From positions 1-26,405 of the forward strand of contig JBHHXT010000053.1 of NCBI GenBank assembly GCA_046757165.1: a DNA stretch of 26,405 bases, written 5' to 3'. The notes under the pieces were generated by a model. It did no database searches. It saw only the letters and a list, made by a program, of their open reading frames with translations, and had not been told where the DNA came from. The stretch is from a bacterium (GTDB taxonomy: Bacteria; Zhuqueibacterota; Zhuqueibacteria; Oceanimicrobiales; Oceanimicrobiaceae). This document shows positions 6,774 to 16,973 of the stretch, piece after piece. Position numbers and translations under genes: made by a program. Numbering within the stretch: position 1 is the stretch's first letter; every line of letters begins with the position of its first letter.

Positions 6774-7310
6774 ATGCCGATCAAAGTCGCCATCCTGACG
6801 ATTTCCACGCGCGGGAGCGAGGGCAAACGCAAACAAGACAAAAGCGGAGACACCATTAAAAACATCATCCGCAAAATCGACGGCCAGGTCGCCGATTACA
6901 AGGTCATCCGCGATGATCAGGAACAGATCATGTGGGAATTGAAACGGTTGGCTGAAGTGGTCAAAGTCGACCTCGTGCTCACGACCGGGGGCACCGGACT
7001 TTCCCCGACGGATGTCACGCCGGAGGCGACCCTGGCTGTCATCGAGCGGCGCGTGCCCGGGCTCGAGGAGGCGATGCGCATGAGCGGCTTCCGCAAAACG
7101 CCGCATGCGCTGCTTTCGCGCGCGGTCGCAGGCACTTTGGAGAGAACATTGATCATCAACTTACCCGGCACTCCCAAAGGGGTGCAGGAGAATCTGGAAA
7201 CGATTCTGGAGACGATTCCGCATGCGGTCGAAGTGCTGCGCGGCGGCTTCATTGCAGACAAACAACACCAGTACAACCAACCAAACCCGGAACAAGAAAA
7301 TAAGATCTAA
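6774..7310 (+). CDS. mog: Molybdopterin adenylyltransferase, MogA/MoaB family
   Basis: VAILTIS, DKSG, LTTGGTGLSPTDVTPEAT, LSRAVAG, IINLPGTPKGV; GAGG SD. Confidence 0.92.
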   Translation: MPIKVAILTISTRGSEGKRKQDKSGDTIKNIIRKIDGQVADYKVIRDDQEQIMWELKRLAEVVKVDLVLTTGGTGLSPTDVTPEATLAVIERRVPGLEEAMRMSGFRKTPHALLSRAVAGTLERTLIINLPGTPKGVQENLETILETIPHAVEVLRGGFIADKQHQYNQPNPEQENKI

Positions 7311-7431
7311 AGGCGGAGTTCGCCAGGTTTACGCAAAGAGCGCCAATATCTCCCTTTGAAGGGAGACAGGTTTTCGCTCGTCCGGAGCGAAAAGCAGAGG
7401 GGTGTCTGCTACACACAAGAACAAATTATTG

Positions 7432-7460
7432 TTGACTTTTAGAGTTTTTTGTTTTAGATT
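7432..7460 (+). promoter_or_regulatory. Sigma70-like promoter P1 upstream of riboswitch
   Basis: TTGACT (7432-7437), 17-bp spacer, TAGATT (7455-7460); predicted start ~7467, just before the aptamer. Confidence 0.7.
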
Positions 7461-7469
7461 TGATGCGTT

Positions 7470-7544
7470 GTTCCGTGTAATTCCTCGTAATAGGGTCGAG
7501 GGAGTCTCCACCAACAAACCGTAAATTTGTTGTTACCGCGGAAC
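7470..7544 (+). promoter_or_regulatory. Purine-family riboswitch aptamer, probable 2'-deoxyguanosine-II (2'-dG-II) class
   Basis: P1 GUUCCGUG/CGCGGAAC, J1/2 UAA, P2 UUCCUCG/CGAGGGA with loop UAAUAGGGU, J2/3 GUCUCCAC, P3 CAACAAA/UUUGUUG with loop CCGUAAA, J3/1 UUAC; U47, C51, C74 plus 2-nt J3/1 insertion. Confidence 0.88.
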
Positions 7545-7582
7545 CCAGGCTCGTAGACAAACCACCAGGGTGGAGACTCCAA

Positions 7583-7660
7583 ATGATAATAATGACCACT
7601 CCCCCGAAATGGGACTTTCCTTATCATTGGATGTTCTTATTCAGTCAATGTCAATCTTAA
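7583..7660 (+). CDS. Putative 25-aa leader ORF (MIIMTTPPKWDFPYHWMFLFSQCQS) under riboswitch control
   Basis: ATG 7583 with GGTGGAG SD (7569-7575) inside the anti-aptamer strand; TAA 7658-7660; no recognisable homology. Confidence 0.3.
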   Translation: MIIMTTPPKWDFPYHWMFLFSQCQS

Positions 7661-7736
7661 TCAATCACACAGCGGACCACCCACAAGTACGGTGGTGTAC
7701 CAAAATAGGTCTGATTGCCTTAACAACACTTTGTTC

Positions 7737-7765
7737 TTGACAATCTTGTCTCAGTTTAGTAGATT
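7737..7765 (+). promoter_or_regulatory. Sigma70-like promoter P2 upstream of TonB-dependent receptor
   Basis: TTGACA (7737-7742), 17-bp spacer, TAGATT (7760-7765). Confidence 0.6.
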
Positions 7766-7976
7766 CCGGTTGAGGAAAAAGAGGGGGGAAGGGACTCCTG
7801 CCTAGAATAATTCGTTCGCCAGACACCACAAGAAGACCTTTAGAATACGAAATCATAGTATTTGGTTGAATTCCCGTACCTATTAATAATGTAAGGAGGT
7901 GATTTAGAAAATCTGTTGAGCCATATTTTGTTGTTGATTACTGTATGAGGGTAGTGCAAAAAAAGGAGGACTATTC

Positions 7977-10900
7977 ATGTCTAAGAAATCACTGTTTGCG
8001 GTATCATTGTGCCTGTTGGTACCAGCACTTGTGTTTGCGCAAGGTAGAACCACAGCCTCGTTAAACGGCATGGTGACGACCAAGTCGGGTGAACCGCTTG
8101 TTGGCGCAAACGTTGTCGCGGTACACGAACCTTCGGGTTCGACTTTTGGCGCAGCCACACGCTCCGATGGGCGTTTTAACATCTCTGGTGTTCGTGTTGG
8201 CGGACCTTATACTGTCACCGCCAGTTTCATCGGTTATCGAACCGCCAAGCAAGAGAACGTCAACCTGGCTTTAGCCCAGGATTTGAGAATCACTTTCAGT
8301 ATGGTCGAAGAAGCGCTCGAGCTGTCTGAGATCGTCACGGTGGCAGAAAGAGATGCGATTCTCACGGCCTCGAATACGGGAACGGCGACCCATGTCACCA
8401 CGGCTCAGATCGAACGTCTGCCAACCATTACGCGCACTATATCCGATTTTACACGGCTTACCCCGCAAGTATCCGGATCGGGCGGCAGCGGTGCCACCAG
8501 TGTCGCAGGCAAGAATAATCGGATGAACAATTTTCAGGTGGACGGCGCCGTGCTCAACGATGCGTTTGGGCTCAATGCCGACGGTTTACCCACAGGAGCC
8601 GCCCGCGCCCAGCCTATCAGTCTCGACGCCATCGCCGAGTTCAACGTGGAAATCGCCCCGTTTGACGTCCGTTCCGGTAGCTTTGCTGGCGGCCTGATCA
8701 ACGCCATTACCCGCAGTGGGACCAATCACTTTGAAGGCTCCGGTTACTTCTTCGGCCAGAACGACTCCTTTGTCGGAGAGCTCGATGACAACGAATTTGG
8801 CAATTTCGATGACTTCCAGGGCGGTTTTCGGTTTGGCGGCCCCCTGGTCAAAGACAAAGTCTTTTTCTTTGTCAATGGAGAGGTTAGACGCCGAGATTTT
8901 CCCATCGAAGCCGGTCTTCTCGGTTCCGGAAAAGCAAATGAATTTCCGATCTCAGATGCTGAGATGCAACAGATCATTCAGATTGCCAATGACGTTTATG
9001 GCTATAATCCAGGCGGCTTCGCTCCGTTTACAAACGAAACCAACGACCAGAAAATCTTCGCAAGGCTGGATGTTAATCTCTCACAAAATCACCGGCTCAC
9101 CATCCGGCACAGTTTTGTGGACGCCGAGCGCGATGACGGTATCGACCGCAACGCCCGCGAATATACGCTCGAGAGTAATCAGTTCAAGCGAGATAACCAA
9201 ACGAACTCAACGGTTCTGCAACTAAACAGCACGATTGGCAACAACATGGCCAACGAATTCAGGCTCGCGTACACAACGATTCGCGACAAGAGAACACCGC
9301 TGTTTGCCGCCGCGCCGGAATTCGAGTTGAATCTGGAAAGAGCGGGGGATGGAATTGGTGAAATAAGGTTTGGGGTAGAGCGTTTTTCCCAGGCCAATGC
9401 CCTGGATCAAAACACATTTGAATTCACGAACAATTTGCACTATTTCACGGGCGACCATACCATCACGGTCGGTACCCATAACGAATTCATCTCTTTTGAC
9501 AACCTCTTTATCCAGGATGCGTTTGGCGCCTACGAATTTGACGTCGAATTGGATGATCTCGCCAGCGGCGCGGATGACTTCTCCCAGAACCGCCCGTCGC
9601 GTTTTTTTCTGAGTCAATCTCGCGTTCCGGGCGTTGATAAACCGCGTGCAGACTGGAGTTATATCCAACTGGGTTTCTACGCTCAGGATGAATGGAAAGC
9701 GTCGCCCGAGTTGAACCTGACCTTTGGGCTGCGAGCCGATATTCCATTGATGCCGGATGACCCGCTCGACAACTCTCAATTCACGTCTGAGTTTGGCCGC
9801 AAAACTTCGGATGTCCCCAGTGGCAATATTCTTTGGTCGCCGCGCTTTGGGTTCAATTACGATTTATCCGAAGACCGCACAACTCAAATTCGAGGTGGTG
9901 CCGGGATGTTTGCGGGCCTGCCACCGGCTGTCTGGCTGTCAAACCAGTATAGCAACACCGGCGTCGACTTTGCCCGTGTTTTTCTGTCCGGCTCTTCCAT
10001 TGAGGGTATCCAGGCCTCGGCTGATCCAAACAACCAACCCAACGTTACAGGCGACATCCCGACTTCCGATATCGCGCTGACGGACGAGGACTTCAAGATG
10101 CCGCAGGTTTTGCGCGCCAACCTGGCCATCGATCATCAACTTCCCAACGGCCTGGTGGGCACGCTGGAATTCCTGTACTCGAAGAATATCAACGACGTTT
10201 TCTTCAGAAACCTCAACATGGGCGATCCCAACAATCCGGGTGCACGAATTGGAACCACGCCAGATGGCCGTTCGGATTACGGCAGCTCGCGCTTGAGCAA
10301 TAACTTCAACAGCGTTATCTTACTGGATAACACCACTGAAGGCCGTCAATTCTTTGTTACAGCGCGTATCAAAAAGCAGCTCAATCGTGGCCCGCTCAGA
10401 GGTCTGTTCGGCAGCCTGGCTTACACATTCAGCGATGCTACCGACATCAATAGTGGCCGCTCGAGCCGTGCTATTTCAAACTGGCGCTTCAACGAGACAA
10501 GTGACCCCAATGGTGAAAAAGCCGAGACCTCCGATTTTGAAGTCAAGCACCGTCTCGTCGGGGATCTCTCCTATAATCTCCAATACGGGCGTGGCTTCGG
10601 CACGACCTTCTCAGTCTTCTATGAAGGACGCTCCGGAAATGGCTTTAGCTATATGTATGATGGCAATGTCAATGGTGATGTGTTTACCTTTGACAACGAT
10701 CTTGCTTTTGTACCGGCCAGCCGAAGCGACGTTTCATCGCAGGTTTCAGACGAAGAGTGGCAAGAAATTGAAACCTTTATCAATTCAAGCTCTGCTCTGA
10801 AAGACGCACGCGGCAAAATATTTCCACGTAACTCCGCACGTGCGCCATGGCAAAACCGAATGGACCTGCGTATTGCCCAGCAAATTCCGAGTGTCCGGGG

Positions 10901-11159
10901 ACAGCGTTTCGAAATCACCCTTGACGTCATCAATTTTCTCAGTCTCATCAATGATGATTGGGGGAGAATTGAGTTTGTTCGATTCGATGCGCAAAACTTC
11001 CTCAACTTCCGCGGCTTCGACGATCAAAACAAACCCATCGTCGATTTGGATGTCCGCGACCGTAATAATGATAATATCGTGACGGAAGACGACGTGTTCC
11101 AGACGGCGGATTTCTCTTCCCGCTGGCAATTCCAGTTGGGCGTGCGTTATTCGTTCTAA
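7977..11159 (+). CDS. TonB-dependent receptor, Oar-like, with N-terminal carboxypeptidase regulatory-like domain
   Basis: Signal peptide, GEPLVGANV.AVHEPSG / GGPYTVT domain, plug NNFQVDGA.LND.FG and GG.INAITRSGTN.F.GS, YAQDEW, WSPRFGFNYD, C-terminal QLGVRYSF; AGGAGG SD. Confidence 0.95.
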   Translation: MSKKSLFAVSLCLLVPALVFAQGRTTASLNGMVTTKSGEPLVGANVVAVHEPSGSTFGAATRSDGRFNISGVRVGGPYTVTASFIGYRTAKQENVNLALAQDLRITFSMVEEALELSEIVTVAERDAILTASNTGTATHVTTAQIERLPTITRTISDFTRLTPQVSGSGGSGATSVAGKNNRMNNFQVDGAVLNDAFGLNADGLPTGAARAQPISLDAIAEFNVEIAPFDVRSGSFAGGLINAITRSGTNHFEGSGYFFGQNDSFVGELDDNEFGNFDDFQGGFRFGGPLVKDKVFFFVNGEVRRRDFPIEAGLLGSGKANEFPISDAEMQQIIQIANDVYGYNPGGFAPFTNETNDQKIFARLDVNLSQNHRLTIRHSFVDAERDDGIDRNAREYTLESNQFKRDNQTNSTVLQLNSTIGNNMANEFRLAYTTIRDKRTPLFAAAPEFELNLERAGDGIGEIRFGVERFSQANALDQNTFEFTNNLHYFTGDHTITVGTHNEFISFDNLFIQDAFGAYEFDVELDDLASGADDFSQNRPSRFFLSQSRVPGVDKPRADWSYIQLGFYAQDEWKASPELNLTFGLRADIPLMPDDPLDNSQFTSEFGRKTSDVPSGNILWSPRFGFNYDLSEDRTTQIRGGAGMFAGLPPAVWLSNQYSNTGVDFARVFLSGSSIEGIQASADPNNQPNVTGDIPTSDIALTDEDFKMPQVLRANLAIDHQLPNGLVGTLEFLYSKNINDVFFRNLNMGDPNNPGARIGTTPDGRSDYGSSRLSNNFNSVILLDNTTEGRQFFVTARIKKQLNRGPLRGLFGSLAYTFSDATDINSGRSSRAISNWRFNETSDPNGEKAETSDFEVKHRLVGDLSYNLQYGRGFGTTFSVFYEGRSGNGFSYMYDGNVNGDVFTFDNDLAFVPASRSDVSSQVSDEEWQEIETFINSSSALKDARGKIFPRNSARAPWQNRMDLRIAQQIPSVRGQRFEITLDVINFLSLINDDWGRIEFVRFDAQNFLNFRGFDDQNKPIVDLDVRDRNNDNIVTEDDVFQTADFSSRWQFQLGVRYSF

Positions 11160-11298: not shown

Positions 11299-12339
11299 AT
11301 GAAGACAAACAAGCGATGTGTCGTGGCATTCCTGCTTATGGTAGCGAGTTCCCTGCCTGCCAAAGACCTCGGCCTCATTCACTCCTACCTCATCCTGGGC
11401 GGCACGCAAGGCAACCAGATCGAACAGTTCAACGAACCCGATGCGGTCGCTTTCATGCGTGACGGCCGCTTGCTTGCGGGTGATACCGTCAACGGCCGGT
11501 TCAAGATGTACACCTTCTCCGAAACCACGCTCTCGATTGTCGCGGTGGGGAGTCCGGGCGGCGGCGATTGCCAGTTCGACAACAGTCTGGAGGTTGTGCT
11601 GGAGAGCGGCCGAGAAATCTACAACGAGGTTCAGGGGATCAGTTGCAATTCCAAAGACGAGATCTTTGTCGTCGACCAGGGCAATCGCAGGATTCTGGTG
11701 TTTGATGCCACGGGCACCTGCTTGCCCGAACGCACCATCGCACTCGAACCGATCCTGATCAAACCAGACCCGGAAAACGGCACAACCTACACCAGTATCC
11801 AAGGCCTGACCGTGGACGGCGAGGACAACCTTTACTTGACCGATACCGGCACGCGCACAGTTTACAAATTTCTCCCGGACGGCACCCTGGACCCCGAATT
11901 CGAGTTCCAGGCCAGACAGGGAACCGAATACATTCTCGACGATCCAGAATCCATGGTCATCCATCAGGACTGGCTGTACGTCGCCGATGAGGGACACCAT
12001 GTCATCAGAGTTTATGAGCGCAAATCTGGCAAGTTTACGGGCAAAACCATCGGCCATCCGGACTTGTTCGGCGCAGATGTCGAGGGTCTCGCCATTCACA
12101 ACTCCCATCTTTTCGCCTTGAACGAGGCCTCCGGCCAGGTGGTCATCTTTGACCTGAGAAAAAACGACCCATCTGTCGTGGCTCAATTTGGTCAAACAGG
12201 AGTGACCCCGGGACGATTTCTTTCGCCAGACGGCCTGGCCATCAGCCCGGACGGCAAATACCTGGCCGTCGCAGACCAGGGGAATTTCAGGATTCAGATT
12301 TTCCTGCTGGAAGAGATTGAGTCTAGATTGGGGCATTGA
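11299..12339 (+). CDS. Secreted NHL-repeat / six-bladed beta-propeller protein
   Basis: Signal peptide; repeats QFNEPDAVA, IFVVDQGNRRILVFD, LYLTDTG, LYVADEGHHVIRVY, FLSPDGLAISPDGKYLAVADQGNFRIQIF. Confidence 0.85.
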   Translation: MKTNKRCVVAFLLMVASSLPAKDLGLIHSYLILGGTQGNQIEQFNEPDAVAFMRDGRLLAGDTVNGRFKMYTFSETTLSIVAVGSPGGGDCQFDNSLEVVLESGREIYNEVQGISCNSKDEIFVVDQGNRRILVFDATGTCLPERTIALEPILIKPDPENGTTYTSIQGLTVDGEDNLYLTDTGTRTVYKFLPDGTLDPEFEFQARQGTEYILDDPESMVIHQDWLYVADEGHHVIRVYERKSGKFTGKTIGHPDLFGADVEGLAIHNSHLFALNEASGQVVIFDLRKNDPSVVAQFGQTGVTPGRFLSPDGLAISPDGKYLAVADQGNFRIQIFLLEEIESRLGH

Positions 12340-14057: not shown

Positions 14058-14135
14058 GGTCAAGAAGGGTCGTGGTGAAAAGTTTGCATTTTTGTGCAAA
14101 ACTCCATTTTAGAAAAAACTTATGAGATAGTAAGA

Positions 14136-15758
14136 ATGAGCGAATTGAACATGACTTTGGACAAAGACCTGCAAGCTATCCAGGAGGTTCGCAATCTCTG
14201 TGCACAAGCGAAGGCCGCGCAATTAACGTTCAAGGAGTTCAGCCAGGAAGAAGTTGACCGAGTGGTCTCGGCAATGGCGGCGGCGGGCTTCCAGGCGTCT
14301 GAAAAGCTGGCGCAACAGGCGGTGCGCGAAACGGGGTACGGCAATGTTCCGGACAAAATCAAGAAAAACCAGTTCGGTACCCGCGATGTTTACGAGTCCA
14401 TTCGCGATCTGCGCACGGTCGGAATCATCCGCGATGACCGCAAGAACAAGATGCTCGAAATTGCCGAGCCGATGGGAGTGGTGGCGGCCATCATTCCGAC
14501 CACCAACCCCACGTCAACCGCCATGTTCAAAATCTTGATTTCGCTGAAAGCGCGCAATGGCATCGTGATTTCACCCCATCCGCGGGCAACCAAATGCATC
14601 CGGGAAGCCACCAATATTTTGATCGACGCCGCGTTGGGGGCCGGGGCACCGGAGGGTTTGATTGGTGTCATCAGCACACCGACACTACAAGCCACACACG
14701 AGCTGATCAAACACCCCGCGGTCGACGTGATTCTTGCCACGGGGGGGACCGGGCTGGTCCGCGCGGCATACAGCGCCGGCAAGCCAGCCTATGGCGTCGG
14801 CCCGGGCAACGTCCCCGTCTATATCGACCGCTCCGCCGACTATCGAAAGGCGGTTTCCGACGTCGTCGCAGGCAAGACCTTTGACCATGGCACGCTGTGC
14901 TCCTCGGAGCAAGCTGTGGTCGTGGACGCCCCCCTGCAAAAACGCGTCAAGGAAGCGCTGAAGGCAGGAGGCGGATATTTTATGGCGCCGGAGGAAATTC
15001 AGAAGCTGGAAAAAGTCCTGCTCACCCCGAACTTCCTCGTCAATGCCGAGATGGTTGGCAAAGCGCCGAAGGTGCTGGCGCAGGCAGCCGGCTTCCCCAT
15101 TCCCGAAACCACCAGAGTCCTGATAGCCGAGCTGGCCGGGGTCGGGAAAACCTATCCCCTTTCTGCCGAAAAGCTCTCACCGACTCTGGTCTTCTATCAG
15201 GTCAGCGGCTGGGAAGAGGGCATCCGTCGCTCTGTCGAAGTCTTGAATTTCGGTGGACGCGGCCACACCGCGGCCATTCATGCCAAAGACGACCAGGTCA
15301 TCCGACAATTCGGGTTGCACGTGCCCGCCTACCGTGTGGTCGTGAACTCGCCGGCTTCCATCGGGGCCGTGGGCTACACCAACCAGCTCATGCCTTCGAT
15401 GACACTCGGCTGCGGCAGCTACGGCGGAAACATCACCTCCGACAACATCAGCGCACACCATTTGATGAACATCAAACGAGTCGCCTATGAAACCCTGCCT
15501 TACTCGGCGCCCAGGAATGGCACGACCTGGCGTCCGACCATTCGCCACGATTGGCAGAATCGCGAGGCGCCTTACATGAAGGCGCTCTCCTCCGAGGTCT
15601 CGAGGAAAGGCTCAGCCGCCAAGCCGGAGCAAGCCGCTCAGCCACCTACCGGACCCGCTCTCCCCGCTGAAAATGACGGGGGATACGGTTCATCCGGCAT
15701 GTCGGAAGCGGAGGTCGTGCAGGTGGTCGAGGCGTTTCTCAGGACCCGAGGCCAGTGA
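14136..15758 (+). CDS. CoA-acylating aldehyde dehydrogenase (EutE/PduP-like) with C-terminal encapsulation-peptide-like helix; start 14136 or 14151
   Basis: DKDLQAIQEVR, EPMGVVAAIIPTTNPTST, ILATGGTGLVRAAYSAGKPAYGVGPGN, FDHGTLCSSEQ catalytic Cys, EKLSP, PSMTLGCGSYGGNITSDN. Confidence 0.93.
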   Translation: MSELNMTLDKDLQAIQEVRNLCAQAKAAQLTFKEFSQEEVDRVVSAMAAAGFQASEKLAQQAVRETGYGNVPDKIKKNQFGTRDVYESIRDLRTVGIIRDDRKNKMLEIAEPMGVVAAIIPTTNPTSTAMFKILISLKARNGIVISPHPRATKCIREATNILIDAALGAGAPEGLIGVISTPTLQATHELIKHPAVDVILATGGTGLVRAAYSAGKPAYGVGPGNVPVYIDRSADYRKAVSDVVAGKTFDHGTLCSSEQAVVVDAPLQKRVKEALKAGGGYFMAPEEIQKLEKVLLTPNFLVNAEMVGKAPKVLAQAAGFPIPETTRVLIAELAGVGKTYPLSAEKLSPTLVFYQVSGWEEGIRRSVEVLNFGGRGHTAAIHAKDDQVIRQFGLHVPAYRVVVNSPASIGAVGYTNQLMPSMTLGCGSYGGNITSDNISAHHLMNIKRVAYETLPYSAPRNGTTWRPTIRHDWQNREAPYMKALSSEVSRKGSAAKPEQAAQPPTGPALPAENDGGYGSSGMSEAEVVQVVEAFLRTRGQ

Positions 15759-15799
15759 GCGAATTGAGACAAAATACCAACAAAATCCCAGAGCGGCCG

Positions 15800-15970
15800 A
15801 ACCGCAAATGAATGGAACACGGATTTGGTCTTGGATGAAAACCAAAGAATCAGGAGCCGAGAATAGATGGAACACGTATCTAACGGATTTAGCGGATCGG
15901 AACGGATTTGGACCTTGGATGCAGCCCCAATCCGTTCCGATCCGTTGAATCCGTGTCATGCGCGTTCTAT
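15800..15970. repeat. REP-like palindrome (ACGGAT/ATCCGT units)
   Basis: Hairpin ACGGATTTAGCGGATCGGAACGGATTTGG ... CCAATCCGTTCCGATCCGTTGAATCCGT (15883-15954), extra ACACGGAT unit upstream. Confidence 0.7.
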
Positions 15971-16007
15971 TTTCTTGCACGTTTTTGTAAACTTTATTGA
16001 TAATACC

Positions 16008-16148
16008 ATGGCAGATGAGGCGCTTCAAGAAACGCTTGCGTTGCTTAAAATCGTTTCTTTGACGGATGAAGATATCAAGAAGGGCGAGGTTTACAGCAAA
16101 GAAGAGGCGTTTGAGTTCATCTGGTCAGAGATTGGTAAAGGTTCTTGA
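16008..16148 (+). pseudogene. 46-aa ORF resembling the C-terminal half of a Phd/YefM-type antitoxin (probable remnant)
   Basis: LQETLALLKIVSLTDEDIKKGEVYSKEEAF matches from memory the QETLALLK.L..G..DI..G......E.F tail of Phd/YefM antitoxins; no N-terminal DNA-binding part and no toxin gene. Confidence 0.5.
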
Positions 16149-16178
16149 GAAGAAACTGAAAGCCCTGTTCCCTTGCAG

Positions 16179-16973
16179 ATGACTCGCAAACTCATCCCGG
16201 TTGGCGTCTCGAACCGCCACCTCCATATCTCTCAAAAAGACTTAGAACACCTCTTTGGCGCAGGCTCGCAGTTGCAGGTCTTGCGTGAGATTTCGCAAAA
16301 GGGCCAATTCGCCAGCCAGGAAGTGCTCGATGTGGTGGGCGCCAAAGGAAAGATCGAGCGCGTTCGAATCGTCGGGCCGGCGCGCGGGCAGACACAGTTG
16401 GAAATCTCACGCTCAGACGCGTACCGGCTGGGCGTGGACCCGCCTGTGCGCTACTCCGGCGATTTGGCGGGGACCCCCGGCGTCAAACTGGTTGGCCCGG
16501 CGGGCGAGCTGGAGCTGCCTGAAGGTGTCATCGTGCCACAGCGCCACATCCACATGAGCCCGCGCGATGCGCGCGAGTTTAGCGTCTGCGACCGGCAGCG
16601 CGTCTTTGTCGCGCCGGTGGAAAAGCACGCGCACGACCCCGGCTGCGAACCGCGCTCGACCATCTTCGGCAACGTTCTGATTCGTGTGGACGAAACGTTT
16701 GTGCTGGATTTCCACCTCGACCTCGATGAAGCAAACGCTGCCGGCCTCGAGACCGGAGACCATGTCTACATCGTTCGGCCGGATGCGAAAGCCCAGCCCG
16801 TGCGCAACCGCAGGCTGATCACCGAAAATGAGGTGCGGCAGGCGATCATGAATCATCGCAAGATCGTCGTCCCCGCGGGCGCGATCGTGACACCGGCGGC
16901 GCGCGATCTGGCCAAAGCGCATGATGTTTTTGAGGATGACACGGATCAAAGAACCACATGGAAACTTTCTTAA
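16179..16973 (+). CDS. pduL: Phosphate propanoyl/acetyltransferase PduL (PTAC) with C-terminal extra domain (alternative TTG start 16173)
   Basis: IPVGVSNRHLHIS, GQFAS, RVRIVGPARGQTQLEIS.SD, SGDLAGTPG, QRHIHMSP, FHLDLDEANAAGL. Confidence 0.93.
   Translation: MTRKLIPVGVSNRHLHISQKDLEHLFGAGSQLQVLREISQKGQFASQEVLDVVGAKGKIERVRIVGPARGQTQLEISRSDAYRLGVDPPVRYSGDLAGTPGVKLVGPAGELELPEGVIVPQRHIHMSPRDAREFSVCDRQRVFVAPVEKHAHDPGCEPRSTIFGNVLIRVDETFVLDFHLDLDEANAAGLETGDHVYIVRPDAKAQPVRNRRLITENEVRQAIMNHRKIVVPAGAIVTPAARDLAKAHDVFEDDTDQRTTWKLS

Follow-up and report, generated by a model that had tools for sequence, protein, structure and literature searches.

The question raised by this locus is what a 2'-deoxyguanosine (2'-dG)-type riboswitch regulates when no real gene stands at the start codon behind it. 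In the window, that is, the whole 26,405-nt stretch of contig JBHHXT010000053.1 that was analysed, a riboswitch aptamer is followed by a Shine-Dalgarno (SD)-like strand, an upstream ORF (uORF) of 25 codons, a second promoter motif and a gene for an outer-membrane receptor (Table 1). We tentatively propose that the riboswitch adds an inducible ON tier to receptor expression through uORF translation and Rho polarity, and we hold with the same reserve that a 2'-dG-II riboswitch here retains a translational ON platform without a real gene at its start codon.

Table 1. Features of the riboswitch leader and its neighbouring genes, in window positions.
Feature	Positions	Strand	Remarks
mog/moaB-type gene	6774-7310	+	upstream synteny marker; in relatives, lies 5' of the receptor or of the DNA-scavenging operon
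Promoter P1 motif, TTGACT-17-TAGATT	7432-7460	+	feeds the riboswitch; transcription start expected near 7467
2'-dG-II riboswitch aptamer	7470-7544	+	Rfam RF03165, 61.4 bits, E 1.5e-13
Anti-aptamer target strand GGAGTCTCCACC	7501-7512	+	3' end of helix P2, J2/3 and first base of helix P3; predicted anti-SD
Long imperfect hairpin	7568-7642	+	predicted with locked aptamer; would recapture SD and ATG; includes stem 7578-7631; weakly supported
Anti-aptamer strand with SD-like GGTGGAG	7569-7580	+	12/12 complementary to 7501-7512
25-codon upstream ORF	7583-7660	+	non-conserved peptide; probable landing strip for ribosomes
C>G stretch, candidate Rho loading site	7596-7673	+	C minus G = 12 in 78 nt; modest
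Promoter P2 motif, TTGACA-17-TAGATT	7737-7765	+	receptor's own; 3' of the whole switch
Conserved AGGAGGTGAT without start codon at SD distance	7894-7903	+	receptor 5' UTR
Receptor, 1060-aa outer-membrane beta-barrel	7977-11159	+	PF25183 and carboxypeptidase-regulatory-like domain
NHL beta-propeller protein	11299-12339	+	probable second gene of receptor operon; same order in G004

The covariance-model score of the aptamer, 61.4 bits, lies above the gathering cut-off of 60 bits, and the match is the sole copy found in the genome. All of the ligand-contacting (first-shell) nucleotides are present (U22, C51 and C78, corresponding to T7478, C7509 and C7536), as is the two-nucleotide J3/1 insertion (T7533 and T7534) before A77-C78, and the junction-proximal pair of the P1 helix, G21-C79 (G7477-C7537), is invariant in all eight aligned sequences. 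The three helices covary across eight sequences, with 90.3% of the cells paired and 9 of the 22 pairs changed on both sides. By these sequence features, which the accessible text of PMC6847200 gives as defining for 2'-dG-II, together with the same three-way junction, the element is a member of the known class; its predicted ligand is 2'-dG, possibly also guanosine, and we infer that it is bound. Compared with the class, the locus differs in its KSB1 host, in that the start codon 3' of the aptamer opens no real gene, and in a U20.G80 wobble (7476/7538) in place of the U-A seen at every other tabulated locus (28), so that G80 is unique among the 29. This second pair of the P1 helix is conserved family-wide but is not class-defining. 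In the accessible text of PMC6847200, disrupting the U20-A80 contact in the xpt riboswitch had a very modest effect, and the C51U change in env1 lowered the affinity for 2'-dG 18-fold. The aptamers of four other loci (L003, L005, L010 and L100) carry U51, like guanine riboswitches, yet have the 2'-dG-II J3/1 insertion and G21-C79, and may be ligand-shifted variants. A sigma-70-type promoter motif lies 5' of the aptamer, and TTGACT precedes the aptamer in all six KSB1 loci, at the same spacing in five.

The class had been known from 12 metagenomic members in the accessible text of PMC5473149 and had been studied as an aptamer, and the available portion of PMC12342879 states that it works through transcription termination. 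Our literature search, which lay outside the founding Weinberg 2017 paper and its supplements, returned no worked-out 2'-dG-II expression platform and nothing on riboswitches in KSB1.

The preliminary description had claimed that 12 nt around the ligand-binding J2/3 are exactly complementary to a downstream strand, and the segments at 7501-7512 and 7569-7580 are indeed exact reverse complements; the former comprises the last 3 nt of helix P2, all of J2/3 (7504-7511) and the first nucleotide of helix P3. Within 7311-7980 no other perfect inverted match is as long (12 bp against 10 bp for the next), the duplex energy of this one, -26.5 kcal/mol, is equalled by none of 1000 dinucleotide shuffles of the following 200 nt (p 0.001), and in the centroid fold it is the sole helix besides P3. 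Together with its counterpart at locus G004a of a relative, it is the strongest such helix among 31 loci. The placing of GGTGGAG (7569-7575) 7 nt ahead of ATG 7583, of a 25-codon ORF whose TAA ends at 7660, and of the receptor start some 390 nt further on (ATG 7977, 394 nt past ATG 7583) also proved accurate. The SD energy of the GGTGGAG strand, -6.7 kcal/mol, is stronger than that of 78% of the starts in a crude first-ATG set (n = 2602); these energies were computed with a generic anti-SD sequence, as the 16S 3' end was unrecognised in the assembly.

Folding predicts a ligand-dependent SD/anti-SD switch on the uORF in this genome and in G004a. In the ligand-free ensemble, the anti-aptamer strand is 93-97% paired to the aptamer in transcripts ending at +112 to +165, and once the aptamer core is withdrawn the unpaired fraction of the SD window rises from 0.16 to 0.44 here and from 0.08 to 0.70 in G004a. 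The opening is missing in G014 and in the metagenome locus L010, and it is reversed in G004b, where the SD closes. The earlier claim that the SD is sequestered without ligand and freed by it is thus predicted by folding for two loci but not for these three. On secondary structure alone, transcripts ending at +112 to +125 favour pairing of the strand with the aptamer by 5.5-5.8 kcal/mol; hence, switching must be kinetic, with the ligand binding during synthesis of the 25-nt linker.

Locking the aptamer leaves the SD strand only approximately 40% unpaired, and the 7568-7642 hairpin later recaptures it. A long hairpin that begins at the purine strand appears in this genome, G004a, G004b and G014 when the aptamer is locked, and once its downstream arm is transcribed the gap between the two states narrows to 2.0-2.4 kcal/mol here and to 0.8-1.5 kcal/mol in G004a. 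These folds, and the first rank of the self pairing among 24 permutations, would suit a translation-free ON switch in which the purine strand exchanges J2/3 for a pyrimidine-rich arm, the hairpin hides the Rho site and the ORF is incidental. We consider this improbable, since the hairpin energies match those of shuffles (z 0.4 to -1.3; p 0.30 here), equally good pairing is found at 38% of ordinary gene-like starts, and the RNAalifold consensus is just -0.65 kcal/mol. A conserved downstream hairpin, no stabler than shuffles or ordinary gene starts, was rejected on these grounds, and the hairpin is treated as secondary. The further stem that had been drawn over the start codon does occur at 7578-7589/7621-7631 but is imperfect: it has a bulged A and at most 8 bp in an unbroken run, and its -10.9 kcal/mol is not beyond chance (p 0.30).

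That the hairpin forms solely in the aptamer-locked state could also fit an OFF switch or interference, in which the ligand-freed 7568-7642 hairpin pauses or terminates transcription, or read-through from promoter P1 occludes promoter P2. Termination is the mode stated for the class in the available portion of PMC12342879, and uORF translation promotes Rho termination in mgtA/corA according to the accessible part of PMC12360218. No U-tract terminator lies behind the hairpin here, however, terminator-like sites in relatives occur only far downstream, in two of the four loci scanned and at chance level, and the genes associated with the riboswitch are catabolic nucleases, so that such an arrangement is very improbable.

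Four of the 21 family genomes carry the riboswitch, at 5 loci in all; a search of the remaining 104 class genomes gave no copy, and the metagenome scan gave a single locus, on one contig. No KSB1 copies past the 5 loci in 4 of the 125 class genomes were found; a pattern search of 167 phylum genomes and a custom model run on the 21 family genomes gave none extra, and the custom model found no decayed copies in 12 loci. One additional 1-mismatch match among the 167 phylum genomes (L053) resembles no aptamer and was dropped, and the 12 genome-pattern matches comprised 4 KSB1 loci already known, one Balneola riboswitch and 7 matches dropped for lack of an Rfam match.

A GTRRAG-type purine strand lies 22-31 nt past the aptamer in five of the six KSB1 loci. 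Among the five relative loci, the complementarity to the aptamer is kept in one, degraded in three and absent in one, so that its conservation in homologous leaders, on which the earlier proposal hung, holds in part. In G004a the strand forms 12 pairs with the same target, including two G-U (p 0.002), and a compensatory change from G-C to A-U is seen, in which an aptamer G to A is matched by a strand C to T. The helix is not beyond chance in G014, L010 and G004b, where it is degraded (p 0.49-0.72), or with G010 included (p up to 0.78). G010 has no anti-aptamer strand; a strong promoter motif (L004:1593-1621) stands directly behind the aptamer in its place, which suggests that the riboswitch there has been bypassed by a new promoter. 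A start codon follows each of the five strands within 5-13 nt (ATG in four, TTG in one) and opens ORFs of 25, 35, 17, 17 and 79 codons whose peptides have no sequence similarity. As to conservation of the leader ORF, an SD-like strand with a start and at least 17 codons thus recurs in four other KSB1 loci. In shuffles, the chance of a start with at least 17 codons is 0.24, 0.15 and 0.22 for the three independent relatives, jointly ~0.008; the length threshold was set once the data were known. G014 lacks a usable SD (-0.9 kcal/mol), and the SD spacing of G004a is 13 nt.

The position of these starts becomes meaningful beside the Balneolales outgroup, where the riboswitch occurs in 20 of the 151 genomes searched, plus two more loci. 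In all 25 genomic Balneolales loci (L061-L083, L100 and L101) the riboswitch stands immediately before a nuclease-type gene: each locus has an ORF of 300 codons or more whose start lies 34-59 nt past C79. Of the four ORFs checked, three encode endonuclease I and one an EEP nuclease; the others have N-termini in common with these four. The short ORFs of KSB1 start 46, 49, 51, 53 and 53 nt after C79 in five of six loci, with the main genes starting 127-607 nt after it. The distances match, and the SD and ATG 7583 therefore occupy the regulated-start position of the class, at which, as the preliminary description had suggested looking for, the Balneolales loci carry a full gene. Most Balneolales loci have an SD-like run between C79 and the start, and at least three platform layouts are seen: candidate J2/3-SD pairing, a GGTCGCC/SD stem competing with an extended P1 helix, and an anti-P1 strand. 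Balneolales J2/3-SD helices have just 4-6 bp. GCCTCC is accompanied by GGAGG in four loci and GCTTCC by GGAAG in four, with L070 and L081 as misfits, and self pairing exceeds permuted pairing at p 0.02, uncorrected for kinship. Of the late-found loci, L100 fits this covariation and L101 breaks it. The SD opening gains more than 0.1 in 8 of the 25 loci and loses more than 0.1 in one.

No Pfam family is found in the 25-aa peptide, and tblastn with the uORF peptides gave nothing beyond self in the genome or the relative loci, 23 from Balneolales included; an origin of the ORF as the remnant of a nuclease signal peptide was rejected on that search. The peptide is not conserved, so that a role as a leader peptide is not supported. 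For a functional product, be it a small protein or a sensing leader peptide, it may be said that the close loci G014 and L010 agree in frame and length (17 codons each), and that a His at codon 15 of their peptides is also found here, but the lengths of 25, 35, 17, 17 and 79 aa, the missing similarity and the empty tblastn and Pfam searches make it extremely improbable. The alternative offered earlier, an ORF left over from a gene that this genome has lost, is unlikely, since the short-ORF layout recurs across the family. Loss of a downstream operon, by comparison, is a live possibility.

The receptor would have to be reached from the uORF across an untranslated gap of 316 nt, from the ORF stop to ATG 7977. 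No plus-strand intrinsic terminator (GC-rich hairpin with U tract) was found in 7250-8050, so that any termination must be of the Rho type. The preliminary description had envisaged indirect control through leader-peptide translation affecting termination; its SD/leader-ORF ON logic is supported, but the non-conserved peptide and the missing intrinsic terminator count against the form in which it was put. A rho gene is present (710 bits), and with it two elements of a Rho relay, the factor and a leader without an intrinsic terminator, are found. A second rho-like gene (G000:C222:847-1929, 411 bits, below the cut-off) exists besides the canonical one. The C-minus-G value seen here is reached by 18% of 498 background leaders, and the best 78-nt excess ranks in the top 4-18% of these leaders in all six KSB1 loci, including G010, where the skew is present though the strand and the ORF are not. 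Rho polarity would be the most economical relay and is the likely one. The uORF has no stop-start overlap with the main gene and no conserved peptide, the features of the mycobacterial relays.

In the mechanism that we favour, the transcript from promoter P1 would fold the aptamer first. Without ligand, the GGTGGAGACTCC strand would invade helix P2 and J2/3 once it is made, burying the SD of the 25-codon ORF, and the untranslated, C>G-skewed RNA would then let Rho stop transcription ahead of the receptor gene. If 2'-dG bound in time, J2/3 would be locked, a ribosome could load at ATG 7583 and shield the C>G stretch, and the transcripts would continue through promoter P2 into the receptor-NHL operon. 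The peptide sequence would be irrelevant to this relay, and with promoter P2 downstream the switch would constitute an inducible tier above riboswitch-independent expression.

The closest known systems are the riboswitch-uORF-Rho switches of M. tuberculosis, which are OFF switches. In the case of pe20, the Mbox-rv1805A leader has, in the accessible text of PMC12810186, a riboswitch SD/anti-SD platform, a small uORF and Rho coupling such as are proposed here; it turns OFF with Mg2+ and its ORF is highly conserved, whereas the present one is predicted to be ON, with J2/3 as the anti-SD and no conserved peptide. In ppe2, according to the available part of PMC11260477, a B12 riboswitch acts on uPPE2, which relays to the main gene, as proposed here, but that switch is OFF, and its relay is termination-reinitiation at an AUGA overlap, a route that the 316-nt gap rules out here. 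E. coli mntP (Mn2+, ON) and thiM/thiC join a translational riboswitch to a Rho-polarity output (accessible portions of PMC12360218 and PMC5499598); there the SD belongs to the main gene, and here to a decoy ORF. In tnaC, speFL and cruR, the last preceding a putative copper importer, a uORF ribosome likewise shields a Rho site (accessible part of PMC12360218), but the ligand is sensed via the nascent peptide, whereas here sensing would fall to an RNA aptamer, and the peptide lacks conservation. In the literature searched, the founding 2'-dG-II paper aside, we found no purine-family ON switch that acts on a non-conserved decoy ORF. If confirmed, the locus would be an ON-type purine-family counterpart of the mycobacterial relays and a worked example of a translational switch becoming a polarity switch.

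The genes controlled elsewhere fit the ON logic, being nucleases and a DNA-scavenging operon. Nuclease genes downstream of 2'-dG-II are reported in the accessible text of PMC8872408, as they are found in relatives here. In G004, G010 and G014, the riboswitch heads an operon beside EEP nucleases that encodes a 714-aa exported protein, a lamin-tail/ExeM-like protein, a lipoprotein, a TonB-dependent receptor, a PorV-like protein and an NHL protein. Bacteroides ddbABCDEF (PMC12478041) is a functional analogue of this riboswitch-controlled nuclease and outer-membrane transporter operon; the accessible main text of that paper does not use the word 'riboswitch', and the corresponding operon was not found in the present genome. 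The 714-aa lead gene occurs in 11 of 20 relatives, three of these with the riboswitch. In two others (L089 and L090, from G001 and G011), CACGCCGTGTA, ~40 nt past the promoter of the 714-aa gene, resembles the first aptamer bases and is a possible scar of riboswitch loss; a custom model returned nothing significant in that region.

The promoter P2 motif is found in 10 of the 11 closest receptor homologues with upstream DNA, at -240 to -269 in nine of these, and with this conserved promoter motif 3' of the switch, expression of the receptor does not depend on the riboswitch; the riboswitch itself is absent from the available DNA of nine of the eleven (one with just 383 nt upstream) and present only here and in G004. 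An orphaned switch is thus conceivable: the DNA-scavenging operon would have been lost, the receptor would be transcribed from promoter P2, and the switch would have little or no effect. In this 99.98% complete assembly, the 714-aa lead gene was not found at E<=1e-60, and the operon partners, EEP nuclease and panB/panC gave no orthologue-level match. Furthermore, mog stands directly 5' of the operon in G002 and G006, a block mog-pan-riboswitch-operon-receptor exists in G004, and mog, the operon and this receptor adjoin in several relatives, so that a deletion could have stranded the switch. The conservation of promoter P2, the solitary G80 among the 29 tabulated aptamers and the apparently bypassed riboswitch of G010 point the same way. 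Against this, the ligand-contacting nucleotides, promoter P1 and the perfect 12-bp helix are all intact, the effect of U20-A80 disruption in xpt was very modest in the accessible text of PMC6847200, and in G004 a second riboswitch copy precedes the same receptor while the operon copy is kept. On balance, we regard a stranded switch as unlikely. Were it true, a perfect switch helix could outlive its operon, and riboswitch-gene association would be misleading when a second promoter intervenes.

The receptor of G004 lies in a different branch of the receptor tree, grouping with those of G003 and G008, while the present one groups with that of G007. The riboswitch-bearing receptors are therefore not sisters, which implies two arrivals or several losses. 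The sister orthologue in G007 (L097:5522-8615) is split into three ORFs. Returning to the inducible tier, a wider version of the proposal seems to us somewhat unlikely: a translational ON riboswitch, with J2/3 as its anti-SD, would have been repurposed as a long-range transcriptional switch, its SD and start kept as a sequence-free decoy ORF after the nuclease gene was replaced, and the cassette of promoter, aptamer and decoy ORF would have been placed before the same receptor in two KSB1 branches, marking this widespread receptor family as an importer of nucleosides or DNA fragments. Among the 31 genomic 2'-dG-II loci, the regulated start lies 34-59 nt behind the aptamer, and in the KSB1 branch a short non-conserved ORF stands there. 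The receptor, which has 4274 homologues, has no match among PDB sequences, and the names of its homologues are uninformative as to cargo; its earlier description as a catabolic uptake gene is putative. Confirmation would offer an initial hint of what this abundant and uncharacterised family transports.

The receptor 5' UTR has conserved features of its own. AGGAGG stands at -83 to -115 before the receptor ATG in nine of eleven homologues, with a mismatch in one more, and the genome holds 65 non-coding AGGAGGTG sites, 32 without a nearby start. The start-less copy at 7894-7903 is possibly a standby site, and we take it to resemble the stabilising STAB-SD of Bacillus; an explanation through RNase J was dropped, as no RNase J scores above the cut-off in the genome. 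GAGGGTAG at 7947-7954, ~30 nt before the receptor ATG, is exact in three homologues and nearly matched in others, and a purine-rich GAGGGAAAGGGA-like run at ~7781-7800, directly after promoter P2, recurs in receptor leaders; both are candidate conserved 5' UTR motifs. Dispersed repeats occupy 7313-7346 (about ten similar copies in the genome) and 7347-7418 (two close copies). Further downstream, at 14094-16973, genes for an aldehyde dehydrogenase and a PduL-type phosphate propanoyltransferase, presumably as in microcompartment pathways, follow the same order as in G004.
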